Below are positions 1 through 35,835 of a DNA stretch of 64,000 nucleotides, in pieces. How positions within the stretch are numbered: position 1 is the first letter of the stretch; each line of letters opens with the position of its first letter. The notes under the pieces are model-generated. The model was given only the letters and a program-made list of their open reading frames with translations. It searched no databases and was not told where the DNA came from. Origin of the DNA: Alphaproteobacteria bacterium (lineage in GTDB: Bacteria; Pseudomonadota; Alphaproteobacteria; GCA-2731375); assembly GCA_965226475.1 (NCBI GenBank), contig CBDDDJ010000003.1:139964-203963 (forward strand), in the 5' to 3' direction. The translations under genes were made by a program, and so were the position numbers.

Positions 1-148
1 GGCCGGCCGACCCTGGAGAGCACGCTGCGTGAGTACGGTATTCAGCCGCGAACGCGGAATTAGCCCCTCGGTATCCCGGAACCGGGTGCCTAGGGGTCGC
101 TGGCCGGGCAGCAACGACCAACGGACGGCCGTCAGTCACTCCGGCGGA

Positions 149-1369
149 TTGACAAAGACGGAGCGATCTTTCCATTGTAGGGCAAAGTGGGAGGGTGCGA
201 TCAAGCGAGAGCCCAACAAGATACTGGTGGTCGACGACGAGCCGGATGTGGAACAGCTCGTGCGCCAACGCATGCGCCGCGAGATTCGCGGCGGACAGTA
301 TGAGTTCGTGTTCGCGCGCAACGGGATCGAAGCGCTCGCGCGATTGAGGGAGCATCAGGACATCGACATGGTCCTATCGGACATCAACATGCCCGAGATG
401 GACGGCCTAACGCTGCTCGAGCAGATCCCGGCGGTCGATCCCAATGTGCGCTCGGTGGTGGTCTCCGCCTATGGCGACATGAAGAACATCCGCACGGCGA
501 TGAACCGAGGCGCCTTCGATTTCGTCACCAAGCCGATCGATTTCGAGGATCTGCGGCTCACCATCGGCCGCACCCTGGAGCATATCGGGCTGTGGCGCTC
601 GGCCCTCGAATCCCGGGACAAGCTGGTCGCGCTGGAAAACGAGCTCGATCTGGCCAGCCGGATGCAGCAATCGATCCTGCCGACGAGCTTTCCCGAGACC
701 GCTGGCTACCGCGTCTTCGCCAGGATGGAGCCGGCGCGCGCGGTCGGCGGGGACTTTTTCGACGTGCTGCCGCTGCCCGGCGATCGCGTCGGACTCGCGG
801 TGGCCGATGTCTCGGACAAGGGCGTCCCGGCGGCGTTGTTCATGATGTCCAGCTGCACCTTGCTCAGGGGTGCCGCGATCGGTCATTCCGATCCGGGCGA
901 TATGATGCGCGAGGTCAATCATCTGCTCTGCGAGAACAACGACGCAGCGATGTTCGTCACCGTCTTCCTGGCGGTCTTCGATCCGGCCAGCGGCGAGCTC
1001 GTTTATGTCAATGGCGGGCACAATCCGCCGCTCGTTCTGCACGTCGACGGGACCGCGACGCTACTGCCGACGACCGAGGGGGTCGCCCTCGGGATCGCCC
1101 CCGATGTCGAATACGCCAAGGGGTCGGTGATCCTGTCGCCGGACGAGGCGGTGGTCTTCTACACCGACGGCGTGACCGAGGCGGAGAACCGCGACGGCGG
1201 GCAGTTCGGCCTCGACCGGCTGCGCGAGCTTTTCGCCGCCGGCCCGCCCGGCGACGCCCGCGGCGTCACCGCAGCGGTGTTCGATGCGGTACACTCGTTC
1301 GCCGACGGCGCGCCCCAGTTCGACGACATCACCTGTCTGACGTTGTGGCGCGGTAAGGGGGAGGGGTGA
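149..1369 (+). CDS. Response regulator receiver domain fused to PP2C/SpoIIE-type serine phosphatase (RsbU/RsbY-like)
   Basis: ORF 29-1369. REC motifs (ILVVDDEPD, DMVLSDINMPEMDG, TKP) are followed by a SpoIIE/PP2C block (GDFFDV, VADVSDKGVPAALFM, FYTDGVTEAEN). There is no in-frame ATG before the REC domain; an in-frame TTG at 149 is proposed as the start, and the true start is uncertain. The stop overlaps the next gene start (GTGA). Confidence 0.8.
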   Translation: MTKTERSFHCRAKWEGAIKREPNKILVVDDEPDVEQLVRQRMRREIRGGQYEFVFARNGIEALARLREHQDIDMVLSDINMPEMDGLTLLEQIPAVDPNVRSVVVSAYGDMKNIRTAMNRGAFDFVTKPIDFEDLRLTIGRTLEHIGLWRSALESRDKLVALENELDLASRMQQSILPTSFPETAGYRVFARMEPARAVGGDFFDVLPLPGDRVGLAVADVSDKGVPAALFMMSSCTLLRGAAIGHSDPGDMMREVNHLLCENNDAAMFVTVFLAVFDPASGELVYVNGGHNPPLVLHVDGTATLLPTTEGVALGIAPDVEYAKGSVILSPDEAVVFYTDGVTEAENRDGGQFGLDRLRELFAAGPPGDARGVTAAVFDAVHSFADGAPQFDDITCLTLWRGKGEG

Positions 1370-1782
1370 GCGTGGAACTGTCGCTGCGCATGGAGACGAC
1401 ACTCGACGAGCTTCCCCGCATCAACGCGGTGATCGAGGCATTCGCGCGGCGGGAGAGCTGGTCTGCCCGGCTTGAGTTTCAGATCAAGCTGGTTATCGAG
1501 GAACTGGCGATCAATGTCGTGAAGCACGGCGGCGGCGCGGGCGGGGCGGCCGAAATCGAGCTGGTTTCCGATCCGAACCGGGTGACCATCGAATTCAGCG
1601 ACGGGGGCCGCCCTTTCGATCCGTTGACCGAGAGCCCCCCGCCCGACACCAGCTCTGGGATCGAGGACCGCCCCGTCGGCGGGCTCGGCGTCCATCTCGT
1701 GCGCACCATGGTCGAGGAGGCGAGCTATCGCCGCGAAGGGGGCCGAAACCGCCTGACCATGGTCAAGCGGAGGGATGGGTGA
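1366..1782 (+). CDS. RsbW/SpoIIAB-like anti-sigma factor serine protein kinase (GHKL HATPase_c)
   Basis: 138 aa with the GHKL signature (EELAINVVKHGGG ... IEFSDGGRPFDPL). GTG start at 1366 overlaps the stop of the phosphatase gene, and its own stop overlaps the GTG of the next gene. Confidence 0.75.
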   Translation: MSVELSLRMETTLDELPRINAVIEAFARRESWSARLEFQIKLVIEELAINVVKHGGGAGGAAEIELVSDPNRVTIEFSDGGRPFDPLTESPPPDTSSGIEDRPVGGLGVHLVRTMVEEASYRREGGRNRLTMVKRRDG

Positions 1783-2951
1783 CGGGCCGGCGCGGGGTCG
1801 CCTTTCTGGTGGTGGCCTTGGGCTTGGCGACACCGGCCTTGGCCGACGCGCCCGGAGTCTCCAGCGGGCGTGTCCTGTTCGGCCAGTCCGCGGCATTCAG
1901 CGGCCCGGCCCAGGATCTCGGCCGCAACATGCGGCTCGGGATCGAGGCGGCCTTTGACGAGGCGAACGCGCGCGGCGGCCTTTTCGGCCGCCGCCTCGAG
2001 CTGTTGTCGCTGGACGATGCCTATGAGCCGGAAGCCGCGATCGCCAACACCCGCCGACTGATCTTCGAGAACGGCGTGTTCGCCCTGATCGGCGCCGTCG
2101 GCACACCGACCTCGCGCTCGGCGACGCCGATCGCCGCTTCCGCCGGCGTGCCCTATGTCGCGCCCTTCACCGGCGCCGCGTTCCTGCGCGAGGCAAGGTG
2201 GCGCAACGTGATCAATCTGCGCGCCTCCTATTTCCAGGAGACCGAAGTAATGGTCGATCGGCTGATGCGCGATCTCGGCATCGACCGCATCGCGGTGTTG
2301 TATCAGGACGATTCCTTCGGCCGCGCGGGTTATCGCGGCGTGCGGCAGGCGCTCGGCCGGCGCGATTTGAAGCCGGTGGCGACCGGCGTCTACCCGCGCA
2401 ACACCACTGCAGTCAAAACCGCCCTTCTGGACCTGCGCGCTGGCGACCCCGGCGCGGTGATCCTGGTCGGCGCCTACCAGCCGGTCGCGACGCTAATCAG
2501 TTGGGCGCGGCACATCGGGTTCGAGCCGGTATTCATCACCATCTCCTTCGTCGGCAGTAACGCCCTGGCGCGCGCGCTCGGCCCGGCCGGGGCCGGCGTC
2601 TTTGTCACCCAGGTCGTGCCTTTACCGACGGAGGACCGGCCCCCCGTCGCCGGGGCCTATCGCCGGGCGCTGGCGGCGCACGCGCCCGAAGCGCGGCCCG
2701 GTTTCGTCTCCTTCGAAGGATATCTCGCCGGACGCCTCGCCATCGTCGCGCTCGAACTGTGCGGCCAGCGGCCCGATCGGACCTGTTTTCTCGACGGTCT
2801 GAGGCGTCTGGAGGCGGTCGATCTCGACGGTTTCGAACTGCGCTACGGCGCCGCCGACAATCAGGGGTCCGAAGCGGTTTTCCTGACGGTCATCGGTGAT
2901 GACGGACGCTATCATCCGGTCGAGACGCTCCGAGACGCGCCGCGGCGATGA
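1779..2951 (+). CDS. Periplasmic ligand-binding protein, LivK/Peripla_BP_6 type (type-I PBP) with signal peptide
   Basis: GTG start. N-terminal signal peptide (VAFLVVALGLATPALADA), then PBP type-I motifs (LFGQSAAFSGPAQDLG, ALIGAVGTPTS). Translationally coupled to the downstream kinase (ATGA overlap at 2948). Confidence 0.75.
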   Translation: MTGRRGVAFLVVALGLATPALADAPGVSSGRVLFGQSAAFSGPAQDLGRNMRLGIEAAFDEANARGGLFGRRLELLSLDDAYEPEAAIANTRRLIFENGVFALIGAVGTPTSRSATPIAASAGVPYVAPFTGAAFLREARWRNVINLRASYFQETEVMVDRLMRDLGIDRIAVLYQDDSFGRAGYRGVRQALGRRDLKPVATGVYPRNTTAVKTALLDLRAGDPGAVILVGAYQPVATLISWARHIGFEPVFITISFVGSNALARALGPAGAGVFVTQVVPLPTEDRPPVAGAYRRALAAHAPEARPGFVSFEGYLAGRLAIVALELCGQRPDRTCFLDGLRRLEAVDLDGFELRYGAADNQGSEAVFLTVIGDDGRYHPVETLRDAPRR

Positions 2952-5125
2952 TCGAATTGTCCAAACGCCTGCTGCGAAGCTGCTTTCGCATCACCACGCA
3001 GCTCAATCTCGGTATTGGCGCGGCCGTCGCCTTCACCATCGTCGCCAGCCTGGTCGGTTGGATCTCCTTCGAGCGGGTCGGCGACATCCAACGTCGGGTC
3101 AACGAGGGCAGCGTTCCCGAGATCGTGGCCGCCTTCACGGTGGCGCGGCAGAGCGGCGCCCTGGTGGCCGCGGCCCCGCGCCTGACCACCGCGGCCACGC
3201 CCGGCGACCTGGCGCGCATCGCCGGCAAGATCGCCGGGGACCGCATGGCCTTCGAGGCGCAACTGACGGGGCTGGTGGAGTTGGAGCAGGACGCGGCGCG
3301 CTCGCGGCCGATCCGCCAGCGCGGCGAGGCGCTGATCGCCAGTATCGAGGCGATCGAGGCCTCGATGTCGGAGCGCTTCGAGTTGGACGCACTGCGGCAG
3401 GCGCGGCGCCAGGAGTTGGCGTCGCTTCGCGGCGAGCTGACCGGCCTTCTGGTCCCGTTGATCGACGATCAGCTGTTCTACACGATGACCGGCTACCGCA
3501 ATCTCGGCGAGGGACCGGCACCGCGCACGCGGCATTTTACGCCGGCGGAGATCAACCGCTATCGTCATCTGGCCGAGCTTCGGGCCGCCGCCACGATTGG
3601 GGCGCAGCTTCTAGCGACCGCTTTCAACGTCTCGGATGCAGCCCTGCTGGAGCCGTTGCGGGAGCGCTTCGAGGCCGCGGCGCGCGGCATCGAGCGACGC
3701 CTAGCGGCGCTCGGGACGGCGCCGGCGCGCCAGCGGCTCGGCCCGCCCTTCGCCCGGCTGATCGAGCTCGGCGCCGGGCCCAATGGAGGGTTCGGCCTGC
3801 GGGCCCGGGAGATCGCCCTCGAACGGCGGCAGCGAGACCTCCTGCAGCGCAATCGCGGCCTCGGCATCGAGCTCGTGGCGGCGGTCAAGAGTCTGGTCAG
3901 CGCCGCCCGCGCCAGCGCCGAAGCGGCCACCCGCGCCGCGGCCGAGGCCATCCTCGCCGGGCGCAATCTGCTGCTGCTGATCAGCGCCGCCAGCATCGTC
4001 AGCGCGGTGTTGATCGCCTGGTTGTTCGTCGGACGCGTGTTGTCGCGCCGCCTGGGCCGGCTTTCCGAGCGGATGCGCGGCATGGCCGAGGGCGATCTCG
4101 AAGGCGCGGTGGAGATCGCAGGGCACGACGAAGTGGCGGATATGGCGGCGGCGTTGGAGGTCTTTCGCCGCCACGCGCTCGAGGTTCAGCGGCTGAACCT
4201 GGTGGAGAAGCTGGCCGAGAAGCTGCGCGGCAAGAACGACCAGCTCGTGCAGGCGCTGGCCGAGCTGGAGCGAACGCAAGATCAGATCGTCATGCGCGAG
4301 AAGCTGGCGGCGCTTGGCGAACTCACCGCCGGAGTCGCCCACGAGATCAAGAACCCGCTCAATTTCATCAAGAATTTCTCGGAAGTCTCGGAGGAGTTGT
4401 TGCAGGAGATGTTGGCCGAGATCCAGAGGGCCACCGGCGAGGGCGACATGGAGCCGGACGAGGAAAGCCGGGAGCTGATCGAGGAGATCGGCGGCGATCT
4501 TACCGGCAACCTGAAACGCATCCACGAGCATGGCGAGCGGGCCAACCAGATCGTGCAGTCCATGCTGATGATGGGCAGCGCCTCGGGCGAGCGGCGGTCG
4601 ACCGATATCAACGCCCTGCTCTCCGAGCACGCCCGGCTCGCCTATCACAACGCGCGCGTGAGCGATCCGGCCTTCCGCCTGGACGTCGAAGAAGACTTCG
4701 ACCCCGAGCTCGGCGAATGCGAAGTCATTCCCCAGGACCTCGGACGGGTGTTCCTGAACATGGTAAGAAATGCCTGCTACGCGACTGACGAGAAGTGCCG
4801 CGCCACCGTCCGCGACCAGCCCGCCGGCGAAGCGGCGGCGGACTATGAGCCGAGGTTGCGGCTGGCGACCCGGCGCCTGACGGACCGTCTCGAAATCCGC
4901 ATTCGCGACAACGGCGGCGGCATTCCACCCGACATCATCGACAAGATATTCAATCCTTTTTTCACCACCAAGCCGACGGACCAGGGTACCGGGCTGGGCC
5001 TTTCCCTGTCGAACGACATCGTCCGCCAACATGGGGGAGATATCCGGGTCGATTCCGAGCCCGACGCGTTTACCGAAATGATCATCGAACTGCCGGCGAA
5101 CGCGGCCCACCCCCCGTCCTGCTAA
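2948..5125 (+). CDS. Sensor histidine kinase (2 TM helices, large periplasmic region, HAMP, HisKA, HATPase_c)
   Basis: 725 aa. TM1 near the N-terminus, and TM2 (LLLLISAASIVSAVLIAWLFVG) followed by HAMP. H-box (AHEIKNPLNFI) and G-boxes (DNGGGIP, GTGLGLSL). Confidence 0.85.
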   Translation: MIELSKRLLRSCFRITTQLNLGIGAAVAFTIVASLVGWISFERVGDIQRRVNEGSVPEIVAAFTVARQSGALVAAAPRLTTAATPGDLARIAGKIAGDRMAFEAQLTGLVELEQDAARSRPIRQRGEALIASIEAIEASMSERFELDALRQARRQELASLRGELTGLLVPLIDDQLFYTMTGYRNLGEGPAPRTRHFTPAEINRYRHLAELRAAATIGAQLLATAFNVSDAALLEPLRERFEAAARGIERRLAALGTAPARQRLGPPFARLIELGAGPNGGFGLRAREIALERRQRDLLQRNRGLGIELVAAVKSLVSAARASAEAATRAAAEAILAGRNLLLLISAASIVSAVLIAWLFVGRVLSRRLGRLSERMRGMAEGDLEGAVEIAGHDEVADMAAALEVFRRHALEVQRLNLVEKLAEKLRGKNDQLVQALAELERTQDQIVMREKLAALGELTAGVAHEIKNPLNFIKNFSEVSEELLQEMLAEIQRATGEGDMEPDEESRELIEEIGGDLTGNLKRIHEHGERANQIVQSMLMMGSASGERRSTDINALLSEHARLAYHNARVSDPAFRLDVEEDFDPELGECEVIPQDLGRVFLNMVRNACYATDEKCRATVRDQPAGEAAADYEPRLRLATRRLTDRLEIRIRDNGGGIPPDIIDKIFNPFFTTKPTDQGTGLGLSLSNDIVRQHGGDIRVDSEPDAFTEMIIELPANAAHPPSC

Positions 5126-5133
5126 GGATAGGT

Positions 5134-5472
5134 TCAGCCGCCCGTCTCGGTCAGCGCCTCCGCCCTGGTGCGGTGAATCTTGATGATCTTGTCGAATCCC
5201 GCCATATCGAAGACCTCCCCAATCGGTTCGGCGAGCGAGCACAAGGCGAACTTCGCGTCGCGTTTCCCGAGGTCCTTGGCGATCAACAGAATCGCTCTGA
5301 GCCCCGCGCTGCTGACGTAAGAGACGCCTTCAAGATCCATGATCACCGCGGCGTCCTCCTCGCTGATGGCGGACTTCATCGTATCCTCGAACTCGCGGGC
5401 GGTGACGCCATCGATACGGCCCTCGACCTCGGCGACCAGGGTTCCGTCTTGTCGTTCGGTTCTCACTTCCAT
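5134..5472 (-). CDS. STAS-domain anti-sigma factor antagonist (RsbV/SpoIIAA-like)
   Basis: 112 aa, SpoIIAA-like (IDGVTAREFE ... MDLEGVSYVSSAGLRAILL). Convergent with the kinase gene, with the gene ends 8 bp apart. Confidence 0.8.
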   Translation of the reverse strand: MEVRTERQDGTLVAEVEGRIDGVTAREFEDTMKSAISEEDAAVIMDLEGVSYVSSAGLRAILLIAKDLGKRDAKFALCSLAEPIGEVFDMAGFDKIIKIHRTRAEALTETGG

Positions 5473-5528
5473 CGCCGTGTCCTTTTTTTTGCTCTCCGCC
5501 CGCTTCGGCTCCGCAAGTGCTGCGGCGG

Positions 5529-5867
5529 CTACAGCGCCGCCTCGCCGGTCTCGCCGCCATGGATCCGCCGCGTGCCAACCACCTCGCAGACGGAGATCTT
5601 GCCGTCGTCGTCCTGGTTGGTGCCGGCGGCTCGGCGGATCGCCTCCATCACCGGTTCGACCAACTCGTCAGTCACCACCGCCTCGATCTTCACCATCGGC
5701 ATGAAAGCGATCCGGTATTCCGTGCCCCGGTGCATCTCGGCATGACCCATCTGCCGGTCGAACCCCTTGACCTCGCTCGCAGTCAGGTCGGTAACCCCGA
5801 CCTCGACCAGCGCCGCGTGTACTGGGTCGAGCTTGTGCGGTTTGACCACCGCCCTGATCAGCTTCAT
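5529..5867 (-). CDS. glnK: Nitrogen regulatory protein P-II
   Basis: 112 aa from MKLIRAVVKP. T-loop with conserved Tyr51 (RGTEYRIAF) and C-terminal RIHGGETGE. Immediately downstream of amtB. Confidence 0.9.
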   Translation of the reverse strand: MKLIRAVVKPHKLDPVHAALVEVGVTDLTASEVKGFDRQMGHAEMHRGTEYRIAFMPMVKIEAVVTDELVEPVMEAIRRAAGTNQDDDGKISVCEVVGTRRIHGGETGEAAL

Positions 5868-5891
5868 CAGCTTAGCGTCCTCCATGCCCGA

Positions 5892-7193
5892 TCAGAAGTC
5901 ATAACCCCTTTCGCCATGGGCAGCAAGATCGAGGCCCACCAATTCATCTTCCTCGTCGACCCTGAGACCGCCGGTCAGCGCCGCCGTGATCTTCACGATC
6001 GCGAAGGTGGCCAGGGCCGACCACGCCGCGGTGGCGAGCAGACCGACCACCTGAACGCCGAACTGCCTGGCGATCGTCATATTCTCGGCCAAGCCGTTCC
6101 CGCCCAGCGCCTCGACGGCGAGGCCGGCGACCAGCAGTGAACCAAACATGCCGCCGACGCCATGCACGGCAAAGACGTCAAGGGAGTCGTCGATCTTCCA
6201 TCGCTGCTTGACCAGTTCTGTGGCGAAGAAGCAGACCGCGCCCGCGGCCACGCCCAGGATCAAGGCGCCGACCGGGCCGATGAAGCCCGAAGCGGGCGTG
6301 ACCGTGGCGAGACCGGCGATGACGCCGGTCGCGGCGCCGACAACAGAGGTCTTGCCGAACTTGATCCACTCGGTAGCCGACCAGGTTACGGCCGCGGCCG
6401 CCGCGGCGATGTGGGTCGCGGCGATGGCCATGCCGGCGCCGCCATCGGCAGCCAGTTGACTGCCGCCGTTGAAGCCGAACCAGCCGACCCAGAGCAGCGC
6501 TGCCCCCGCCGCCGTCATGCCGGAATTGTGCGGCGGATGGATCTGATTGGGAAAGCCGCGGCGGCCGCCCACCATGACAGCGATGACAAGCGCCGATACG
6601 CCGGCGGTCGTGTGCACCACCAGGCCACCGGCGAAGTCCATGATTCCGAGCGCGCTGAGCCAACCGCCGCCCCAGATCCAATGGCAGACCGGCGCGTAGA
6701 CCACGATGAGCCACACCCCGCTCAAAATGAGCACGGCCTGGAACTTGACGCGCTCGACATAGGCGCCGACCATCAGGGCCGGGGTGATGATGGCAAAGGT
6801 CATCTGGAAAACGGCAAAAACGATCTCGGGAATCGAGCCGTTCAAAGCGTCCGGCGTCACGCCGGCGAAGAAAGCCTTGCCGAGACCGCCGATGATGCCG
6901 CCGACGCTGTCGGCAAAGGCCAGGCTGTAGCCGAGGATCAGCCAGAGCAGGCTCGCAACGCAGGTGATCGCGAAACATTGCATGATCACCGACAGCACGG
7001 CCTGGGAGCGCACCAGCCCGGCATAGAACATCGCCAGGCCCGGCAGGGTCATCAACAGGACCAGCGCGCTGGCGACGATGATCCATGCGCTGTCGCCGGC
7101 GCTGAAAGCTGCCTCCGCCGCCCAAGCCGGCTGAGGCAGGACGGAAGCTAACGGAATCGCGAAAGCTGGGCCGATAGGCCGACGCACGATCAT
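5892..7193 (-). CDS. amtB: Ammonium transporter
   Basis: Amt family motifs (DFAGGLVVHTTAGVSAL), signal peptide, and an AGGAGGGGG RBS before the ATG at 7193. The ORF-track extension to 7262 is judged to be upstream read-through. Confidence 0.9.
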   Translation of the reverse strand: MIVRRPIGPAFAIPLASVLPQPAWAAEAAFSAGDSAWIIVASALVLLMTLPGLAMFYAGLVRSQAVLSVIMQCFAITCVASLLWLILGYSLAFADSVGGIIGGLGKAFFAGVTPDALNGSIPEIVFAVFQMTFAIITPALMVGAYVERVKFQAVLILSGVWLIVVYAPVCHWIWGGGWLSALGIMDFAGGLVVHTTAGVSALVIAVMVGGRRGFPNQIHPPHNSGMTAAGAALLWVGWFGFNGGSQLAADGGAGMAIAATHIAAAAAAVTWSATEWIKFGKTSVVGAATGVIAGLATVTPASGFIGPVGALILGVAAGAVCFFATELVKQRWKIDDSLDVFAVHGVGGMFGSLLVAGLAVEALGGNGLAENMTIARQFGVQVVGLLATAAWSALATFAIVKITAALTGGLRVDEEDELVGLDLAAHGERGYDF

Positions 7194-7330
7194 CCCCCTC
7201 CTCTGACACCCGACCAGCAAATCATTTCTGGATGAACACCGCAACCCCGGTGTCGCTAACACACGATATGACCGCCGTAGGTACCATGTGATCTGTCCGG
7301 TTTAGAACGTCGCCTTCGAGGAGGGCGGCG

Positions 7331-8512
7331 ATGAAGCGGGCCGAGGTGTTGCAAGGACTACGGCAGATGAAGTTCGAGGAGATTCTGGAGCGCGCGAAGC
7401 GGCGGCGACTGAGCCAGGCGGAGGCGGCGTCGATCCTGGGGATGAGCGAGCGAACGTTCCGGCGCTGGCGGGGTCGCTTTGAGGCGGAAGGCGCGGAGGG
7501 TCTGTATGACCGCCGGCTGGGCAAGGTCTCGGGGCACCGGGTGCCGGTGGACACGGTGATGGAGGTTCTGGAGTTGTTCGACACGCGCTACTGGGACTTC
7601 ACGGCCAAGCACTTCCACGAGAAGCTGCTCGATGAGCACGGCTTCACGCGGAGCTACAACTGGGTCCGCCTGACGCTCCAGGCCCACGGGCGCAAACGTC
7701 CGGCACCGCGGCGAGGCGCGCACCGGCGCAAGCGGCCGCGCCGCGCCCTGCCCGCCATGATGCTGCACCAGGACGGCTCGACCCACCAATGGGTTCCCGG
7801 GCAGTGGTGGGACCTGATCGTCACCATGGATGACGCAACCAGCGAGATCTACTCGGCCTTCTTCGTCGACGAAGAGGGGACCATGAGCAGCTTCCGGGCC
7901 CTGGGCGAGGTGATCGAGGTCCGGGGGCTGTTCTGCTCGCTCTACGCCGACCGGGCCTCGCACTACTGGCACACGCCCGAGGCCGGCGGCAAGGTGGACA
8001 AGAACAACCCGACCCAGGTGGGCCGAGCCCTGGGCCAGCTGGGCATCGAACTGATCCCGGCCTACTCCCCCGAGGCCCGGGGGCGCTCGGAGCGCATGTT
8101 CGCGACATTGCAGAATCGCCTGCCGCAGGAACTGCGCTTGGCCGCCATCACCACGATGGCCGAGGCCAACGCGTTCCTGCGCGAGATTTATCTGCCCCGC
8201 CACAACGCCCGTTTCGCGGTGCCGGCCGAAGCCGAGGGCTCGGCCTTTGTCCCCTTCACCGGATCGCTCGACGACATCCTGTGCATCCAGGAGGACCGGA
8301 TCGTCGGCAACGACAACACGGTGCGCTACAAGCGGCTGGTGCTGCAGATCCCGGAGGATCGCCACCGCCGCCATTACGTCAAGGCATCGGTGCGGGTCCA
8401 CGAATACTCCGGCGGCACCCTGGCGGTCTTCCACGGCCCGCGCCGGCTGGCCCGATATCAGGCCGACGGCACCGTCCTCGACGAAACCAAGAACAGCAGA
8501 GCGGCCGCGTGA
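7331..8512 (+). CDS. ISNCY-family DDE transposase (N-terminal HTH + integrase core)
   Basis: 393 aa (SERTFRRWR HTH; MMLHQDGSTHQW ... LIVTMDDATSEIY ... SPEARGRSERMF). Identical to the protein at 46560-47741. Confidence 0.8.
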   Translation: MKRAEVLQGLRQMKFEEILERAKRRRLSQAEAASILGMSERTFRRWRGRFEAEGAEGLYDRRLGKVSGHRVPVDTVMEVLELFDTRYWDFTAKHFHEKLLDEHGFTRSYNWVRLTLQAHGRKRPAPRRGAHRRKRPRRALPAMMLHQDGSTHQWVPGQWWDLIVTMDDATSEIYSAFFVDEEGTMSSFRALGEVIEVRGLFCSLYADRASHYWHTPEAGGKVDKNNPTQVGRALGQLGIELIPAYSPEARGRSERMFATLQNRLPQELRLAAITTMAEANAFLREIYLPRHNARFAVPAEAEGSAFVPFTGSLDDILCIQEDRIVGNDNTVRYKRLVLQIPEDRHRRHYVKASVRVHEYSGGTLAVFHGPRRLARYQADGTVLDETKNSRAAA

Positions 8513-8534
8513 ACCGCTTCGACGCGCGCCCGGC

Positions 8535-8584
8535 CTGTGGATAAGTGGACAACCCGCCACGGCGGGTTCCCCACTTATCCACAG
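8535..8584. repeat. Perfect-arm palindrome/hairpin inside the IS right end (CTGTGGATAAGTGG ... CCACTTATCCACAG)
   Basis: 14-bp inverted arms seen directly just downstream of the transposase stop. Repeated in the other IS copies (about 9985-10035 diverged, 45131-45180, 46480-46529). Confidence 0.8.
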
Positions 8585-8672
8585 GCCCAACAACCACAAC
8601 AGAAGCGGTCAATTCATATGGTACATAAAGCGGTCAATTCGAAATGTTCTCGACACCCCGGTTGGGCCATCG

Positions 8673-10107
8673 TGTCGCTAACACACGATATGACGGTCTA
8701 TGTAAGCGGCCGCGTGAACCGGTCTATGTAACAGATGATCTGTCCGGTTTTAGATTTCCTCCAAATCTGGAGGAATCGGATGCGCCGGACGGATGCAGTT
8801 GCAGGGACTGAGATTGATGAAGTTCGAGGATGTCTAGGGACGCTGTTATCGGGGTGATTTGAGCCAGGCCGAGGCCTCGGAGATCCTGGGCATGTCGGAG
8901 CGGACGTTCCGGCGCTGGCGGGAGCGCTATGAGGCCGAGGGTGCCGAGGGTTTGTACGACCGGCGCCTTGGGCGGGTCTCGGCGCGCCGCGCGCCGGTGG
9001 ACGAGGTGATGCGGGTGCTGGAGCTGTTCGAGACGCGCTACCCGGACTTCACGGCCAAGCACTTCCACGAGAAGCTGGTCTGCGAGCATGGCTTCGGGCT
9101 GAGCTACAACTGGCTTCGCCTGAGCTTGCAGGCGCCGGCAAGATCAAGCCGGCGCCCCGGCGCGGGGCGCACCGCCGGAAGCGGCCGCGCCGACCGGTGG
9201 TGGGGATGATGCCGCACCAGGACGCCTCGAGCCACGAGTGGGTTGCGGGCCAGTGGTGGGACCTGATCGTGACCATGGACGATGCGACATCGGAGGTCTA
9301 TTCGGGCTTCTTCGTTGCCGAGGAGGGCACGATGAGCACGTTCCGCGGGCTCGGCGAGGTGATCGCCGAAAACGGGCTGTTCTGCTCGCTCTACGCCGAT
9401 CGGGCCTCGCACTACTGGCACACGCCCGAGGCAGGCGGCGGTGTGGACAAGGACAACCCGACCCAGGTCGGCCGGGCCTTGGCGCAGCTCGGCATCGAGT
9501 TGATCGCGGCCTATTCGCCGCAGGCCCGGGGCCGCTCGGAGCGCATGTTCGGGACCTTGCAGAAGCGCCTGCCCCAGGAGCTGCGCCTCGCCGGGATCGC
9601 CACCATGGCCGAGGCCAATCGCTTTCTCGAGGAGCTCTTCTGGCCGGCGCACAACGCCCGCTTCGCCCGCCCGGCCGCGGACACCGGCTCGGCCTTCGTG
9701 GCTTTTGCCGGCACGCTCGAGGACATCCTCTGCGCCCAGGAGGACCGCGTCGTCGCGGGCGACAACACCTTGCGCGACAAGCGCCGCACGCTGCAGATCC
9801 CGGCCGATCGCCACCGCCACCACTACGTCAAGGCGCAGGTCCGGGTGCACGAATATCCCGACGGCCACCTGGCCGTCCTCCACGGACCCAGGTGTCTGGC
9901 GCGCTACCGCGCCGACGGCGAAACCATCGACGATGACAGGCTCCAGGCCGCGTGACCCGCTTCGACGCGACCGACCCCGGGCCTGTGGATAAGTGGACAG
10001 CTCGGCAAAGCAGCCGACCTGACCACTTCCCCACAGGCCCAACCACCACAACAGAAGCGGTCAATTCATATGGTACATAAAGCGGTCAACTCAGTTTGTT
10101 ATCGACA
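8673..10107 (+). mobile_element. Diverged ISNCY-like element, copy 2, in tandem 17 bp after copy 1
   Basis: Same terminal architecture (TGTCGCTAACAC ... ATCGACA) and the same internal hairpin, but with divergent sequence. Confidence 0.7.
8780..9955 (+). pseudogene. ISNCY-like transposase, disrupted (early stop and frameshift)
   Basis: The ATG at 8780 reads into TAG/TGA within 25 codons. Homology resumes in ORFs 8859-9209 and 9197-9955 in different frames. Confidence 0.7.
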
Positions 10108-10183
10108 ATAAAGATGTAGGGCACGACCGGCCTTCGTCCGTCGGCGATCGTGTCCCATGGAATGGTGTAGCTGACGGAGCCTA

Positions 10184-10819
10184 TTGGCGGCCGGACCGTT
10201 CACCTCAGACCCTGACATGAAGAAGAAACCAATGGACAAAGCCAACGCGAAGCGGATGTCGGAGAAAGCTCCCGAGCATGTTGGAGACAACGTGTTCACT
10301 CCGCACAACTTCGACGACGTCGACCTAAGACAATTCCTCCGCACCTACCTTTGGGTCATCTACGTTGCCGGCTTCCGCAACGCGGTCGTGGAGAAACACT
10401 TTGATACCATCAAAGATGCGTTTCACGACTTGGACCTGGACAAAATCGTCGCCGTGACGTCGATAAACGCCGACGCGCTCCCGATCCGTAACCAACGGAA
10501 GGCGGACGCGTTCCTGCGGGGGTGCGAATTAATTCACGCCGAAGGCTGGCAAGCGTTCCAACAGCGACTGAATGTGCGCGGTCAGGCCGCACTCGCAGAG
10601 CTTCCCTGGATGGGCCCCGCGACCAAACAGCTCATGGTGCTAGTCCTTGGCATTGAGGACACGGAAAAGGCCGACATCTGGATCAAGCAGTGCGCCGATG
10701 CTTGTTCCGCGACCGTGGACCAAATAGTCAGATTCCTCAGGCGGGAATACGGACTGACCCGCCAACAGGTGGATAATTACTTGTGGCGATACTGTCGCGA
10801 CAACCAACGGTTGCCATGA
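10184..10819 (+). CDS. Hypothetical protein, putative HhH-GPD-superfamily DNA glycosylase-like (MagIII/Tag-like)
   Basis: 211-aa ORF in a distinctly lower-GC block. Helix-hairpin-helix-like motif (LPWMGPATKQLMVLVLG). The family call is tentative. Confidence 0.4.
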   Translation: MAAGPFTSDPDMKKKPMDKANAKRMSEKAPEHVGDNVFTPHNFDDVDLRQFLRTYLWVIYVAGFRNAVVEKHFDTIKDAFHDLDLDKIVAVTSINADALPIRNQRKADAFLRGCELIHAEGWQAFQQRLNVRGQAALAELPWMGPATKQLMVLVLGIEDTEKADIWIKQCADACSATVDQIVRFLRREYGLTRQQVDNYLWRYCRDNQRLP

Positions 10820-10856
10820 ATGCTTGATCGCTGCGCAGGTGGATAATTACTTGTGG
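10766..10856. repeat. Two 21-bp direct repeats CAGGTGGATAATTACTTGTGG (10766-10786 and 10836-10856)
   Basis: Exact repeat straddling the stop codon of the 211-aa ORF. Confidence 0.8.
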
Positions 10857-10984
10857 TGGCCGGTTGCTCGATCGCACTGATCAACCGGTTGATTTGGTGC
10901 TCAGTCTGACTGTCCGCCTCCAAGTCCGTCGACCGCGCGCCGCCGGCTTCACCGCCCTCGCCCGCCGGATCGACGCTGTCGGGA

Positions 10985-12033
10985 GCAATAATTTTGGCTC
11001 AATTCGTGAATTGTATGCGTCACCTTGTTACGGCGGCGGCGAGGCAGGCTCGGTCATTGGCGCCGGGGGCGAGGCCGACGAGGTGGAACCAGCTCAGGTA
11101 GTTGTCCAGATAGCGGGTGGCGATGCCGCGGCGGGGACGCAGGAAGTCCTTCAACCGGCTGTGGCGGCTGTTCACCGTCTGCACATGCAGATCGCCCCGA
11201 ACCCGTTCCCCCATCGAGCGGTTGAGTGCTTCGTGGCTCACCCCGAGCGCGGCGGCGCAAGGTGGATAGCTCGCGCCACCGTCGGAGACCAGCAGGGCGT
11301 CCTTCGCGACCACCGGGTCGAGAGCAGCCGTGAGCGCCGCCGCGTCGACCCTGGGCAGCACCGCGCTCACCGTCGGCCCGCTCCGGTCCGCCGCCATGAG
11401 AACCGGCACCTGCTCGCGCGAGAGGCCGCGCTTCTTCGCCTTGCCGCCCCGCCGCCGTGCCTTGCGTCCCAGCCCGCGCGCGCCCTTCCGGCTCTCCAGG
11501 ACGTAGGTCTCGTCCGCTTCCACGATCCCCTTGAGCACCTCCGAATCGCTCCGCGCCGCCGCCAGAAACCGGTGACGCCAGCGGAACGCCGTGCTCACCG
11601 CCACGTCGCAGCGCGCCGCCGAGGCCTTCACCGTCTCCCCCTCCGCCAGCGACGCCCCGAACGACAGCCAGCGTTCCTTGTGGTGCAGGCCCGACAGCGG
11701 CGTACCGGTCAGCGCGTTGAAGGTCCTGCCGCAGCCCTTGCACTGGTAGCGCCGCAGACCCCGCGCCATACCGCGCGAAACCGCCCCTTCGCTCGCGCAG
11801 TGCGGACAGCGCCGGGCCTCGTCCACACCAAGCTCGATCGCGGCCTTCGATGCCTCGCCTTCGCTCCGGCCCAACAGCACCGCGAGCGCCTCGTGCCGCT
11901 GCACGCGCGTCAGCCCGCGCGCCGCCGAAAGCCACACCTGGAAACCCTTGCCGTCCATGACCCAACCTCCTGACATTCCGGGCATTCTATCACAAATGCA
12001 TACGTTTCACGAATTGACCCATAATTTTAGTGC
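10985..12033 (-). mobile_element. IS1595-family insertion sequence
   Basis: Imperfect terminal IRs (core TCAATTCGTGAA.nGTATGC) at about 10985-11025 and 11995-12033 flank a 312-aa transposase. Confidence 0.7.
11020..11958 (-). CDS. IS1595-family transposase (N-terminal zinc ribbon + DDE domain)
   Basis: CPHCAS ... YQCKGCGRTF zinc ribbon, then an ISXO2-like DDE region (EADETYV ... LVSDGGASY). AGGAGG RBS before the ATG at 11958. Confidence 0.8.
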   Translation of the reverse strand: MDGKGFQVWLSAARGLTRVQRHEALAVLLGRSEGEASKAAIELGVDEARRCPHCASEGAVSRGMARGLRRYQCKGCGRTFNALTGTPLSGLHHKERWLSFGASLAEGETVKASAARCDVAVSTAFRWRHRFLAAARSDSEVLKGIVEADETYVLESRKGARGLGRKARRRGGKAKKRGLSREQVPVLMAADRSGPTVSAVLPRVDAAALTAALDPVVAKDALLVSDGGASYPPCAAALGVSHEALNRSMGERVRGDLHVQTVNSRHSRLKDFLRPRRGIATRYLDNYLSWFHLVGLAPGANDRACLAAAVTR

Positions 12034-12270
12034 TGATGCGGTTTCCGTGGACTTCGTCCTGACTTGGCCCAGTCGAGGTTCGAGGTGTCGGTGCGGCGGA
12101 CGGATGGTTTGCTCCCGTTCATTTCAACTGAACTCGTGGACACCTCCATCAACGGGCAAGTCATGCAACAAGGCCGGGCCGGTATTCGGAGAGATGCCGC
12201 ATGACGGCAGTCAGCACGACCTTAAGCGAGGGAATGCCGAGGGCTGTAGCCCGCTTCATTGGGCGAAAAC

Positions 12271-12474
12271 TCAGTCACCCGTTGGCTCGATCCCCCTTTC
12301 TTTGTCGAGGAGACGCTCGCACTGGGTAAGGACACGGAGAGCCACATCCATCGCCAGGTAGTCACCGCTACTCCGCAGTTCCTCAACGCGATCCTGGGCA
12401 ATACCTATGGCCTCTCGGCCGTAATGCTGGACCAACTCCCGTGCTGAGCGTCCGATCTCAGTCTTTGTAATCAC
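12271..12474 (-). CDS. Hypothetical small protein (67 aa)
   Basis: ORF in low-GC IS-scrap DNA with no recognisable domain. Weak support. Confidence 0.25.
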   Translation of the reverse strand: MITKTEIGRSARELVQHYGREAIGIAQDRVEELRSSGDYLAMDVALRVLTQCERLLDKERGIEPTGD

Positions 12475-12571
12475 CTGCGTTCAGCCTCGATGTCTTTTCG
12501 CAAAATATCTACACGGTGGCGAATTGCGGCAACCTGGACGCATCGGCTCAATCGAGACGCCGACCACGAAA

Positions 12572-12856
12572 TTAACCCGGCGCGCCACATCCTCGCCAAA
12601 CTTCATCCATTATCTCCTGTTGCTGCGTCAGGTCGAGAATATGCTGTTCGTACGTGGCACCGAGATCTGTCATGAGATAGTTGGTTAGGCGAGCCTTCGA
12701 TCCCGCCAATGGTTGCGTCCGGCGTGCCGCCGACTGATAGGCGCCGGCCGGTGTCGAGATCGACCGGCCGGCAAAGACCTCGTGAAAGTCAAAGCGCATG
12801 GGCTGCATCAACGAGATCGTTTCCTCGCTCACCCGTGTGTTCGTGCCGGAATACAT
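12572..12856 (-). CDS. Hypothetical small protein (94 aa)
   Basis: ORF in lower-GC DNA adjacent to the previous one, with no recognisable domain. Weak support. Confidence 0.2.
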   Translation of the reverse strand: MYSGTNTRVSEETISLMQPMRFDFHEVFAGRSISTPAGAYQSAARRTQPLAGSKARLTNYLMTDLGATYEQHILDLTQQQEIMDEVWRGCGAPG

Positions 12857-13186
12857 TTGCCACGACCGTATCCTCGACCGATGGCTGCTTGCGCCAACGA
12901 ATCAGGAGCAAATCCGCACGTGCTACGCCCCTTCTGCACCGGGCATCCGAAAGCTTGCTGGCGCCTGCCACGCGGTTTCCATGGATTGGCGCCTTCGCGC
13001 GGCCAACCAGCACGAACAGTCCGACACGCAAAATTGGGGACTTATGTGCTTTGATCTCGCAGGCCGATAGTCAGGTCGCGGCGATTGCCCGCTCATGCGG
13101 CATGGCGGTGGCAACGCGCAACGTCCGAGTGATCCTCTCCCATTGGATTGGTCCATCCTTAGGTTTGGGAATGGGGAGGATCAACG

Positions 13187-13330
13187 ATGGCAAGGAAGCG
13201 CTACAAGCCGGAGGAGATCGTCAGCCTGCTGCGGCAGGCGGAGGTTCTGCATGGCCAGGGCATGTCGATGGCGGACGCGATCGGGCAACTGGGGATCAGT
13301 GAGGTCACATTCTATCTCTATGGATGGCTC
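13187..13330 (+). pseudogene. IS3-family OrfA N-terminal fragment
   Basis: MARKRYKPEEIVSLLRQAEV ... MADAIGQLGISEVTFY matches the IS3-family OrfA HTH, then degenerates. Confidence 0.6.
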
Positions 13331-13543
13331 TCCCGTACGAGGGATGTTGATCTGAGTGACGTGGGTCGGTTGCAAACATCTATCCGGCATCACCCATAGT
13401 GGGGTGCCCAAATGGGGAATCCGCACGCACCCGCCTCTACAGCTGATAGGCCTCAGAGGCCTCGATAATAGTCAGGCTCGTGGCGCGCCGGTCCGACCTG
13501 TGCAGCTCATTTCGTTATCGTCTCGCAACCTCGTGGCGGGCCC

Positions 13544-13735
13544 TCAGCCAGCGGCGCGGTAGGCTTCGCCGCTCCGAAGCACGGCCCAGATGATCCGTGC
13601 GTTCTTGTTGGCGACGGCCACCGTGGCCCGGTTGAAGCCGCGCCGCCGGTGAAGTTTGTTGACCCAGGCGTTGAAGGGATCCGTCTTTGCTGAGGCCGTT
13701 CGAACGACGGACCTGGCGCCATGCACCAGCAGGGA
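13544..13735 (-). pseudogene. IS110-family transposase C-terminal remnant
   Basis: Minus-strand translation ends ... FNRATVAVANKNARIIWAVLRSGEAYRAAG, the typical IS110 C-terminus. No N-terminal part is present. Confidence 0.55.
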
Positions 13736-13737
13736 TC

Positions 13738-14474
13738 CTATCGCCCGGGGAGGGGGTTGAGGCCCACCCGCGTCTGCCGAAGGTAGATAGACCCGATGGT
13801 GCCGAAATTCATGACCGTGAACCCGCAACCGACGAGAAAGGCTTGGGAATAGCTGCCCGTGAGGTCGAAAATGTGGCCTCCGAGCCACCCCCCGAGTGCC
13901 ATGCCGAGCAACTCGAACATGTAGAAGGTGGCGATGCGCCAGCCGGCCTGGCTGGCCGGGAAGAGCAGCCGGATGATCAGGGGGTAGCACGGCATGATGC
14001 CCGCGAATCCCAGGCCGAACAGCAATGCGGCGACGTACAGGGCAGGCGGGCTGGTTACGATAGAAAAGACCACGAGCATGATGGCCTGACAGGCCGAACC
14101 GATGAGCAGCGTTCGCACCCCGCCGATGCGGTCGGCCAGCATGCCATAGAGAATCCGCGAGACGAAAGCCGCGGCGAACAATACGGTCAATAGTTCGGCG
14201 GCGCGTGCTCGTGGCAAACCCAGGTCGGTGCCGTGGCTGACGAGATGAACCATCGGTATCGCCATCGCCGCGCAGCAACCGATGGTCGCCAGGCACAACA
14301 GGCCCTGCACGGCATTTGCGGGCAGATCGAGAACCCGTCCAAGCACGGCGTGGCCCTCGCGGGCCCGGCCCGGGGGCGTGATGGGCGGCTTGGTGCGCAG
14401 CAGCATGGCTAGCGGCACCATGGTGCAAAGCGCGAAAACGCCGAATATCAGATAGGTCTCGCGCCAACCGTAGG
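13738..14474 (-). pseudogene. MFS transporter, C-terminal half only (truncated by IS21 insertion)
   Basis: Multi-TM MFS-like sequence whose reading frame runs straight into the IS21 terminus at 14475. The N-terminal half is not found on the other side of the IS. Confidence 0.65.
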
Positions 14475-14574
14475 TGTGTGCGGCGGTGACAAATTAGACC
14501 ACGGAAGCGGCGGGATTTGCCCGGCTGCGGGCGGAGTAAAACTCTGCCACCTGTAGCCTTCGATCCTTTTCGGG

Positions 14575-16089: not shown

Positions 16090-16853
16090 GCGACACGCCG
16101 CAGGTGTTGCTGGCCCATCACCTGAAGGCCCTCAAGCTGCCGACCTTCCTCAGGGAGTACGACAAGCTGGCTCGCCAGTGTGCCAGCGAGGGCGCCGACC
16201 ACGTGCGCTACCTGCTCCGCCTGGCCGAGCTGGAACTGATCGACCGCGAGCGCCGCATGGTCGAGCGGCGAATCAGGCAAGCGAAGTTCCCGACCGTCAA
16301 GAGCTTGGACAGCTTTGACTTCAAAGCGATCGCCTCGCTCAACAAGGCGCTGGTCCTCGAGCTGGCACGATGCGAGTACATCGAGCGCCGGGAGAATGTG
16401 ATCGCTCTGGGCAATTCCGGCACCGGCAAGAGTCACATTGCGCTCGGCCTCGGCCTTGCCGCCTGCCAGAAGGGCCTGTCGGTCGGCTTTACCACCGCCG
16501 CCGCCCTGGTCCACGAGCTCATGGAGGCGCGCGATGACAGACAGCTGCTGAGGTTCCAGAAGAAGCTCGCCAACCTCAAGCTCCTCATCATCGACGAGCT
16601 GGGTTTCGTGCCGCTCTCCAAGACCGGCGCCGAGTTGCTGTTCGAGGTGTTCAGCCAGCGCTACGAGCGTGGCTCGATCCTGGTGACCTCCAACCTGCCA
16701 TTCGACGAGTGGACGGAGGTTTTCGGCTCAGAACGCCTGACGGGGGCGTTGCTGGACCGCCTGACCCACCACGTCCATATCCTGGAAATGAACGGCGAAA
16801 GCTTCCGCCTCAAGCAGAGCCGAAGAAAACAGAAACCCGCAAAAAGCGCCTGA
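16086..16853 (+). CDS. istB: IS21 helper ATPase IstB
   Basis: GTG start MSDTPQVLL, Walker A GNSGTGKSH. The ORF-track upstream extension is ignored. Confidence 0.85.
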   Translation: MSDTPQVLLAHHLKALKLPTFLREYDKLARQCASEGADHVRYLLRLAELELIDRERRMVERRIRQAKFPTVKSLDSFDFKAIASLNKALVLELARCEYIERRENVIALGNSGTGKSHIALGLGLAACQKGLSVGFTTAAALVHELMEARDDRQLLRFQKKLANLKLLIIDELGFVPLSKTGAELLFEVFSQRYERGSILVTSNLPFDEWTEVFGSERLTGALLDRLTHHVHILEMNGESFRLKQSRRKQKPAKSA

Positions 16854-23038: not shown

Positions 23039-23138
23039 TGTGTGCGGCGGTGACAAATTAGACCACGGAAGCGGCGGGATTTGCCCGGCTGCGGGCGGAG
23101 TAAAACTCTGCCACCTGTAGCCTTCGATCCTTTTCGGG

Positions 23139-25417: not shown

Positions 25418-25602
25418 GCGGCATCCGCTTGCCCCCGTGGGCCCACAGGCCCCTCCCACGCGCGCCGCGGCCTTTGCCTGCTGAGGGGCAGTCCACGCCG
25501 CGCGTGGGTCCCTCCCGTGGACTACGGGGACAAGCTCCTCACCGAACCAAAGTGGCCCACTTTTGCTCCGCCACATGGCCGGGTTTTACTCCGCCGTTGA
25601 CA

Positions 25603-35831: not shown

Positions 35832-35835
35832 CGCG

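Follow-up and report, generated by a model that had tools for sequence, protein, structure and literature searches.

The subject of this analysis is a group of five genes near the 5' end of a 64-kb stretch of DNA (64,000 nucleotides, referred to below as the window) from contig CBDDDJ010000003.1 of a metagenome-assembled genome (MAG) of an alphaproteobacterium. Four of the genes lie on the plus strand and encode a response-regulator phosphatase (REC-PP2C), an RsbW-like serine kinase, a secreted solute-binding protein and a sensor histidine kinase, and the fifth gene, which is convergent with them, encodes a STAS protein. These genes are best read as a horizontally mobile cassette in which a two-component input that depends on a binding protein controls a partner switch of the RsbU/V/W type. 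The output of the switch would not be a dedicated, linked sigma factor but plausibly ammonium uptake or nitrogen assimilation. We put the probability of this reading as a whole at roughly 60%.

Domain calls were made with Pfam and NCBIfam profiles on the open reading frames (ORFs) of the window. An earlier reading of this DNA from its letters alone (the sequence-only reading) had described five ORFs, at 29..1369, 1366..1782, 1779..2951 and 2948..5125 on the plus strand and at 5134..5472 on the minus strand, and all five were found. The Pfam scan that it had proposed detected each of the expected families, Response_reg, SpoIIE, HATPase_c_2, Peripla_BP_6, HAMP, HisKA, HATPase_c and STAS. Direct reading of the sequence also bore out the three 4-bp overlaps between the plus-strand genes, GTGA at 1366-1369, GTGA at 1779-1782 and ATGA at 2948-2951, and identical overlaps were called at the orthologous loci L004, L005 and L007 (orthologous loci carry L numbers throughout).

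The first gene (ORF 29..1369, likely gene 200..1369, as judged from Pfam, homolog lengths and a comparison of starts) encodes the REC-PP2C phosphatase. A Response_reg domain (88.8 bits, aa 65-178, about nt 221-562) is joined by a 70-residue helical segment to a SpoIIE/PP2C domain (173 bits, aa 250-439, about nt 776-1345) that covers profile positions 1-189 of 192. The predicted phospho-acceptor of the receiver is Asp118 in the numbering of the 446-aa version (codon 380-382). In an alignment of 25 REC-PP2C sequences the D, D, D, S/T and K residues of the receiver are all invariant, as are the metal-binding Asp residues of the PP2C motifs GGDFFD, ADVSDKG, YTDG and FDDIT. It has been proposed that control of PPM phosphatases by receivers through helical or coiled-coil linkers is general (PMC12143880), and by analogy the 70-residue segment fits this mechanism.

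The second gene (1366..1782, plus strand) encodes a GHKL serine kinase of the RsbW/SpoIIAB type with 136-138 residues. It scores 85.9 bits with HATPase_c_2 against a cut-off of 27.4, and the N box (E44, N48), the G1 motif DxG (D77, G79) and the G2 motif GGxG (G103, G104, G106) are invariant in 27 orthologs. The phosphatase and this kinase are separate ORFs, with a stop codon and the 4-bp overlap between them, and the same separation is seen in all orthologous loci. The single-domain STAS protein (5134..5472, minus strand) is of the RsbV/SpoIIAA type. It scores 75.6 bits with Pfam STAS and 78.6 bits with the anti-sigma-factor antagonist model TIGR00377 (cut-off 53.45). Its predicted phospho-acceptor is Ser54 (codon 5311-5313), in a motif Y-I/V-S-S-A-G-L that is invariant in 26 orthologs. 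The sequence-only reading had claimed a complete partner-switching triad, and the PP2C phosphatase, the GHKL serine kinase and the STAS protein are indeed all present, with catalytic and acceptor motifs that do not vary across 25-27 orthologs. The core of the histidine kinase scores best with NCBIfam models of the AtoS, ZraS and NtrB types. The receiver scores best with AtoC, GlrR, ZraR, NtrX and NtrC, besides two RssB-type models and one model for a c-di-GMP phosphodiesterase regulator. As far as profile scores can indicate, these similarities match what would be expected of a cognate pair.

Conservation of the gene order was studied with an ortholog scan that used one genome per GTDB species, and synteny was determined by tblastn. 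REC-PP2C relatives number in the thousands and the best 120 are all at least 67% identical. Orthologs at 53-71% identity were found in eight phyla. They come from Alphaproteobacteria (where a 98% match is the window's own organism, a MAG), Gammaproteobacteria, Latescibacterota, Chloroflexota (Dehalococcoidia), Actinomycetota (Acidimicrobiia, including Ca. Poriferisodalis and Ca. Spongiisociaceae), Acidobacteriota, Ca. Binatia, Gemmatimonadota and Thermodesulfobacteriota. The order REC-PP2C, RsbW-like kinase, binding protein, histidine kinase is kept in 28 loci from the eight phyla. The binding protein, 53-87% identical across phyla, is the best conserved component along with REC-PP2C, and its exact sequence also occurs on four ENA metagenome contigs, one of which is 9.06 Mb long. 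Relatives under about 48% identity (Bacteroidota and others) were set aside as different systems in which the binding protein and the kinase are absent. The REC-PP2C protein of the window is closer to that of Latescibacterota (71%) than to those of other Alphaproteobacteria (Paracoccaceae, 58-60%). Because similarity departs from taxonomy in this way, the comparison indicates horizontal transfer as the simplest reading.

The STAS gene is found in 26 of the 28 cassette loci, in three arrangements. It is convergent and follows the kinase gene in Alphaproteobacteria, Latescibacterota, Binatia, Paracoccaceae, some Gammaproteobacteria and Thermodesulfobacteriota. It is the first gene, on the same strand, in Dehalococcoidia, Acidimicrobiia and Acidobacteriota, and in Gemmatimonadota and Ca. 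Azophilus it forms a unit with the RsbW-like gene apart from the genes for REC-PP2C, the binding protein and the histidine kinase. Since the STAS gene has been retained with the cassette despite these rearrangements, gene order gives good evidence that the STAS protein is its cognate substrate. Two tandem STAS genes occur in the gammaproteobacterial MAG loci L026 (15032-15900) and L027, and in L010 (Latescibacterota, 9368-15236) the STAS-RsbW segment is duplicated. The doubled STAS genes are, by analogy, reminiscent of systems with two antagonists.

What does this switch act on? The absence of a sigma factor gene, which had been claimed for the sequence as first read, extends to the whole 64-kb window, where none was found by tblastn with RpoE, SigB, SigF and FliA; the queries are approximate, so that the screen is a tolerant one only. 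It had also been advised to inspect the sequence 5' of the window, and the annotation of the source contig shows no sigma gene for about 8 kb upstream (or downstream). A neighbour census was made with Pfam on the 250 ORFs within 5 kb of the 28 cassette loci, run in two halves, and no Sigma70 family is among the families that it lists, which are those represented at least twice in either half. Within 10 kb, tblastn found a sigma gene in one of the 28 orthologous loci, L023. It encodes regions 1.1, 1.2, 2, 3 and 4 and is of the primary type, and between it and the cassette lie genes for an Amt and a cation-efflux protein and an ORF of 120 aa without annotation. A primary-type factor separated by three genes was rejected as support for a conventional system. 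The sequence-only reading had named a constant sigB-like neighbour as the mark of a conventional RsbVW-sigma system, and 27 of the 28 loci have no linked sigma gene. On the preferred reading, the switch does not act on a dedicated sigma factor encoded beside it.

An anti-sigma system of the conventional kind could still act on an unlinked target. The RsbW-like kinase would then sequester an alternative or primary sigma factor, the dephosphorylated STAS protein would free it, and the proximity to amt would be incidental or a matter of co-regulation. The kinase matches HATPase_c_2 and, weakly, the RsbW and RsbA anti-sigma models, and its size of 136-144 aa across the family is usual for SpoIIAB and RsbW. 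Switches with an unlinked sigma factor have precedents in Shewanella CrsR and Chlamydia RsbW, and HsbR-HsbA is said to act on RpoS and on FlgM/sigma-28. However, the match to the NCBIfam RsbW and RsbA models is far below their cut-offs (27 bits against 145 for RsbW), and no sigma gene is linked in the window or in 27 of the 28 loci. In addition, a compatible sigma factor would have to be present in every recipient of a cassette that has been exchanged, at 53-71% identity, among eight phyla, which is implausible for a lineage-specific alternative factor and possible for a primary one. We take this explanation seriously as a rival and give it a minor but appreciable chance of being right.

The reading that is preferred here, an output in nitrogen metabolism, comes from the neighbourhood of the STAS gene. 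The sequence-only reading had described this gene as a convergent antagonist. It is convergent with the kinase gene, but it is not free-standing and forms the last gene of an amt/P-II/STAS string on the minus strand, and a linkage of this kind is seen again in other phyla. The string begins with a gene for an ammonium transporter of what is called below type A (Amt; 5892..7193, Pfam Ammonium_transp 363.8 bits). This is followed by a gene for a P-II (GlnK-like) protein (5529..5885) and, after a further 56 bp, by the STAS gene. STAS is probably co-transcribed with amt (and P-II). The P-II protein has the T-loop Tyr51, and a His residue aligns with Tyr46 of GlnB. Its real start is likely Met7 (nt 5867), and L007 has the orthologous arrangement. 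The order amt then P-II is the reverse of the usual glnK-amtB, and the Pfam P-II score of 73.8 bits is low for the family.

Ammonium_transp was the top family in the neighbour census, with 10 of the 250 flanking ORFs (7 and 3 in the two halves). Amt genes are present in 12 of the 28 cassette loci (574 kb) and in none of 50 control loci (863 kb) that came from the same search and lack the cassette (Fisher p = 7e-7, with no correction for shared ancestry). Two main Amt lineages can be distinguished, with about 30% identity between them, and some Amt genes are more divergent. Type A is found in the window, L007, L017 (one of two Amt genes, L017a), L020 and L023, and type B in L004, L005, L009, L015, L017 (L017b) and L033. 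The Amt of L028 is 23-28% identical to all others and belongs to neither type. Amt and cassette occur in at least five arrangements, which include amt followed by STAS convergent with the kinase, amt followed by STAS and REC-PP2C on one strand, and RsbW followed by STAS and amt. Both Amt types are found directly beside STAS on the same strand. A regulator gene is beside and co-oriented with amt in the window, L004, L005, L007, L009, L017, L020, L033, L088 and L089, which is not most of the loci. The gap between amt and STAS is 42-89 bp in six loci and 400 bp in L020. No P-II gene was found within 10 kb in L004, L005, L009, L088, L089, L017, L020 or L033, and because the type-B loci have no P-II gene within this distance, STAS occupies the usual position of GlnK in the type-B cases. 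A search in the reverse direction showed that type-B Amt homologs with at least 82% identity are beside STAS and the cassette (L088 and L089, which are probably one lineage with L005).

Other genes of nitrogen assimilation recur near the cassette. A GlnE gene is divergent and immediately upstream of it in both Paracoccaceae loci, L025 and L029, a GlnD gene is near it in L005 and L006, and a gene for type III glutamine synthetase (GSIII) is near it in L002 (the source contig) and L007. The repeated adjacency to ammonium transporters suggests, at the level of gene order, a link to nitrogen uptake.

A stronger form of this link has to be considered, in which the STAS protein itself is the effector, as in HsbA or SypA, and acts directly on Amt like a phospho-switchable GlnK, with the RsbW-like kinase and REC-PP2C serving only to add and remove the phosphate. 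Regulation by STAS domains is known for SLC26/SulP transporters, and proteins that consist of STAS alone can act as effectors. In the cassette loci STAS sits beside amt in the usual GlnK position, the eight loci just named carry no P-II gene within 10 kb, and the adjacency is common to two Amt lineages. GlnK-AmtB resembles this arrangement in having the gene of a small cytoplasmic regulator, subject to reversible covalent modification, beside amt. It differs in that GlnK is a P-II trimer that is uridylylated or adenylylated, whereas the STAS fold is unrelated and its modification is predicted to be on serine, and the STAS-Amt contact is hypothetical. A full-text search found no literature link between STAS-only proteins and ammonium transporters, and hence no precedent for such an interaction. 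Amt adjacency is absent from most cassette loci, and in the window a normal P-II gene lies between amt and STAS. A direct action of STAS on Amt is doubtful. A bolder version, which we think improbable, is that the cassette is a transferable module with which symbionts of many phyla sense one extracellular, possibly host-derived nitrogen compound by means of the highly conserved binding protein, and that STAS directly gates Amt as a serine-phosphorylated analogue of GlnK. If this were true, it would be the first partner switch with a transporter rather than transcription as its output.

The input side of the cassette consists of the two remaining genes. The binding protein (1779..2951, plus strand) is of the secreted LivK/HAAT type (Peripla_BP_6, 195.5 bits), with an N-terminal signal peptide (MTGRRGVAFLVVALGLATPALA, followed by D), and it resembles structures of the LivK family (PDB 4KV7 at E 6e-70). 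A full-text search for literature on 4KV7 or 3LOP from which a ligand could be deduced found none. The sensor histidine kinase (2948..5125, plus strand) has two transmembrane segments and consists of a TorS-like periplasmic region (about nt 3071-3949), HAMP (4025-4171, 30.8 bits), HisKA (4313-4579, 39.8 bits) and HATPase_c (4733-5098, 80.5 bits). HAMP, HisKA and HATPase_c were the only domains detected with Pfam and NCBIfam, and there is no receiver or HPt domain. The protein had been taken for a HAMP histidine kinase, and by profile it is a classical, non-hybrid one.

The periplasmic region of the kinase was compared with known sensor domains in several ways. The TorS model TIGR02956 scores 151 bits against a cut-off of 676, with a match that covers the latter half of the periplasmic region and extends through HAMP. 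Pfam PF21689 scores 19.7 bits on the window kinase, under its cut-off of 27, and it is the precomputed family for several homologs. A PDB search with the sensor domain as a single sequence gave no useful match. With a profile of 28 orthologs, the TorS sensor structures 3O1H (E 5e-5, 267 of 277 residues) and 3I9Y (E 6e-5) were found, both along their full length, and the remaining matches were coiled-coil noise. An AlphaFold2 model of residues 39-345, made with 23 homologs, is all-helical, with a mean local confidence (pLDDT) of 88.4 and a predicted TM score (pTM) of 0.75. The six best matches of a Foldseek search against the PDB are all TorS sensor domains, with TM scores of 0.72 (query) and 0.81 (target), and PilJ and McpS rank far below them. 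According to the model the periplasmic domain has the TorS-type fold, a double four-helix bundle. TorS is controlled by a docked binding protein, TorT (reviewed in PMC8050422). The sequence-only reading had proposed that the kinase is loaded by the co-encoded binding protein, and this proposal gains support because the sensor domain resembles that of TorS both in profile searches and in its predicted fold, and TorS depends on TorT.

It is also conceivable that the binding protein serves ordinary transport or is an orphan, with no role in signalling, and that the kinase directly senses something else through its periplasmic domain. Peripla_BP_6 proteins are mostly subunits of ABC transporters, and the table of binding-protein-dependent sensor kinases in PMC8050422 contains none with a Peripla_BP_6 partner. 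Yet the gene is directly upstream of the kinase gene in 28 of 28 loci, with a 4-bp overlap in the window, L004, L005 and L007. No Liv-type permease or ATPase genes (LivHMGF type) were found near it on the source contig or in the census of ortholog flanks, and the predicted fold of the sensor is the one that has been solved in complex with a binding protein. This alternative is very unlikely. A chance juxtaposition in a region scrambled by insertion sequences (IS), of which the window has many and one of which abuts amt, hardly deserves consideration, since it is refuted by the synteny of five genes in eight phyla with unrelated flanks.

For the cassette reading, we infer the following order of events. 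The secreted LivK-type protein would capture a small periplasmic ligand, plausibly a nitrogen compound, and would dock on the TorS-like sensor domain as TorT does on TorS. Docking would shift the balance of kinase and phosphatase activity of the HAMP-HisKA-HATPase kinase. The phosphoryl group would pass to Asp118 of REC-PP2C, and the helical linker would switch the PP2C domain on or off. The PP2C domain would strip the phosphate from Ser54 of STAS, and the 136-aa RsbW-like kinase would restore it with ATP. The phosphorylation state of STAS would set how much of it is bound to the RsbW-like kinase and how much is free, and hence which third partner is engaged. Since the cassette is found in eight phyla without a sigma gene, the third partner is expected to be encoded beside the cassette or to be universal. 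The best candidates would be Amt, P-II and the nitrogen-assimilation machinery, because STAS is co-oriented with amt (and P-II) and genes for Amt, GlnE, GlnD and GSIII recur nearby.

Several observations weigh against this reading. The Fisher test ignores shared ancestry and the co-transfer of a larger block, and 16 of the 28 cassette loci have no Amt gene within 10 kb. Type-B Amt homologs with an identity of about 75% have no cassette beside them (L090 and L091), and an obligate module of Amt and cassette was rejected on this ground. On the input side, TorT belongs to Peripla_BP_1 whereas the binding protein of the cassette belongs to Peripla_BP_6, and because of this difference the mode of docking is, for the binding protein, an analogy and not a homology. 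In the alignment, Glu226 and Tyr202 of LivK, which we take to be the residues that contact the amino and carboxylate groups of the ligand, correspond to Ser256 and Ala232, and because of these replacements the binding protein probably does not have a canonical amino-acid pocket. In L001 (13340-14000, equal to about 5118-5540 of the window), which is otherwise 99-100% identical, the STAS gene has a 10-bp tandem duplication (GATCACCGCG) that causes a frameshift, and its 3' end has been swapped for a fragment of about 230 bp resembling an IS5-type transposase. Barring an assembly artefact, this STAS gene is probably a pseudogene in a cassette whose other genes are intact. Finally, an unlinked sigma target is compatible with the sequence data.

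No description of this wiring was found in the full-text literature, in agreement with the earlier impression that the architecture is uncharacterised. Its parts can be compared with several known systems. The RsbK-RsbY pair of Bacillus cereus had been put forward as the closest described logic. It is a valid analogue but only one of them, and the Pseudomonas system HptB-HsbR-HsbA is at least as close for a Gram-negative switch without a sigma gene. In the B. cereus system (RsbK-RsbY-RsbV-RsbW-sigmaB) a histidine kinase also acts on a REC-PP2C phosphatase (RsbY), which acts on an RsbV-type STAS protein with an RsbW-type counter-kinase. RsbK is a hybrid kinase, cytoplasmic or in the membrane, that contains a receiver and has no binding-protein partner, and the module belongs to the sigB operon and controls sigma-B. 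The cassette kinase, in contrast, is non-hybrid and has a TorS-like sensor, and there is no sigB in the window. Pseudomonas HptB-HsbR-HsbA, Shewanella CrsR-CrsA and Vibrio fischeri SypE-SypA are like the cassette in being Gram-negative switches that are fed through a receiver, have the phosphorylation state of a STAS protein as output and carry no sigma gene in the operon. In HsbR, CrsR and SypE the receiver, the PP2C domain and the kinase are in one polypeptide, and HsbR receives its input through the HPt protein HptB. In the cassette the PP2C protein and the kinase are separate, translationally coupled genes, the input kinase and the binding protein are in the operon, and there is no HPt protein.

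The TorT-TorS systems of E. coli and Vibrio parahaemolyticus share with the cassette the fold of the sensor and a co-encoded periplasmic binding protein as the likely receptor. They differ in that TorT is a Peripla_BP_1 protein that binds trimethylamine N-oxide and TorS is a hybrid kinase with a receiver and an HPt domain that signals to the OmpR-type regulator TorR. With its Peripla_BP_6 protein, non-hybrid kinase and phosphatase as regulator, the cassette is not a member of the TorS/TorT group. Another relevant module is RbaV-RbaW-RbaY of Rhodobacter capsulatus. RbaY is not known to have a receiver, and neither an input from a kinase or binding protein nor an amt linkage is known for the Rba module. 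What it has in common with the cassette is that it is an RsbV/W/U-like module of an alphaproteobacterium and that no sigma factor gene adjoins it (PMC3999984).

The boundaries of the genes require some comment. The ORF of the first gene is open from GTG 29, as had been described, but the resulting 446-aa version is over-extended, because homologs have 380-389 aa and the ATG start of the orthologs (L004, L005 and L009) aligns with an ATC at 200-202 of the window. The relative L007, which is 88% identical, has ATA at this position (L007 about 7960-8010), and a conserved GGGAG precedes both the ATC and the ATA. The leader of the gene (64..199, plus strand), defined by the contig annotation, the sequence and an alignment of ortholog leaders, lies downstream of an MFS gene that ends at position 63, and it has a Shine-Dalgarno-like GGGAGGG at 189-195. 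The next in-frame start after 200 is GTG 227. The likely start is either the near-cognate ATC 200 or GTG 227, the latter with the first strand of the receiver clipped. For the RsbW-like gene the ENA gene caller picked GTG 1372 (136 aa) instead of GTG 1366, and the tight packing of the genes holds for either start.

Sigma-70 promoters and terminators were searched for in positions 1-7600 of the window. The promoter scan gave no promoters, and the terminator scan gave predictions only at the level of shuffled sequence, with none between amt, P-II and STAS. For sigma-54 elements there were 53 matches against 62 expected by chance, which gives no evidence for NtrC or sigma-54, and a candidate near amt (7241-7255) was rejected as the GG is absent. 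The stop codons of the kinase and STAS genes are convergent and 8 bp apart (5125-5134), without a terminator-like structure, and the corresponding gap in orthologs is 1-83 bp. It is probable that the 3' ends of the two transcripts overlap, with antisense effects or transcriptional interference as a possible consequence.

The window is dense in IS elements. A 2176-nt element, which encodes a 504-aa protein with a Mu-transposase C-terminal domain, occurs in three identical copies (14475-16650, 23039-25214 and 25600-27775). A 1412-nt element is present in two full copies, at 7251..8662 and, identical and inverted, at 46410-47821, and in one partial copy (45062-46254). These come from a repeat search, and no strand is assigned to the first copy. 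It ends about 58 bp upstream of the start of amt and may have displaced the native amt promoter.

Other neighbours of the cassette vary between lineages. Directly upstream on the source contig (L002 4991-8285) there are a second Peripla_BP_6 gene, a gene for a stand-alone sCache_3_2 protein of 245 aa and the MFS gene. The same set is present in L007 (4448-7784) and absent from the other phyla. The second Peripla_BP_6 protein is 33% identical to the binding protein of the cassette, and the set may be a lineage-specific accessory unit for sensing or uptake. Farther upstream are IS66 and IS1595 transposases and the GSIII gene. In the Dehalococcoidia loci L015 (15170-19094) and L017 (15455-19268) the type-B Amt gene lies in or beside an operon for a circularly permuted ATP-grasp protein, an Alpha-E protein and a transglutaminase downstream of the cassette, and L091 (10676-13991) also carries a type-B Amt gene in or beside such an operon. 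To our knowledge no role has been assigned to this gene set. Within the window, at 31668-42271, there are genes for a xanthine-dehydrogenase-like molybdoenzyme, one hydantoinase A and two hydantoinase B/oxoprolinase proteins. Genes of this kind, for the catabolism of nitrogen heterocycles or amides, loosely fit a nitrogen-scavenging lifestyle.

The names of the MAGs and taxa suggest that the hosts of the cassette are mostly sponge symbionts. The taxon names mean 'sponge companion', Poriferisodalaceae are a sponge-symbiotic lineage (PMC11706023), and the MAG labels COS, RHO and CAR correspond to sponge species of PMC8163846. Four loci have genes of the GPP34 family (Golgi phosphoprotein 3 family) no more than 5 kb from the cassette, and this family has been associated with sponge symbiosis (PMC11706023). 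SpoIIE, STAS and anti-sigma components are mentioned in neither PMC11706023 nor PMC8163846. Because the cassette occurs in eight phyla, in MAGs with names that suggest sponges, and its similarity does not follow taxonomy, it may represent an adaptation that these bacteria share and that has spread by transfer in the environment of the sponge host, where ammonium and nitrogen wastes are a major currency.

The individual modules of the cassette are familiar. What is new is the wiring, the spread across phyla in probable sponge symbionts and the recurring linkage of amt and STAS. For the study of how two-component systems are wired to partner switches, and of what the sigma-less switches act on, the cassette is a compact and self-contained test case, in which the extracellular receptor and the intracellular switch are defined and the candidate outputs encoded beside them are few (Amt and P-II). 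If the link to Amt is real, it would provide a second post-translational route for the control of ammonium uptake, alongside P-II.

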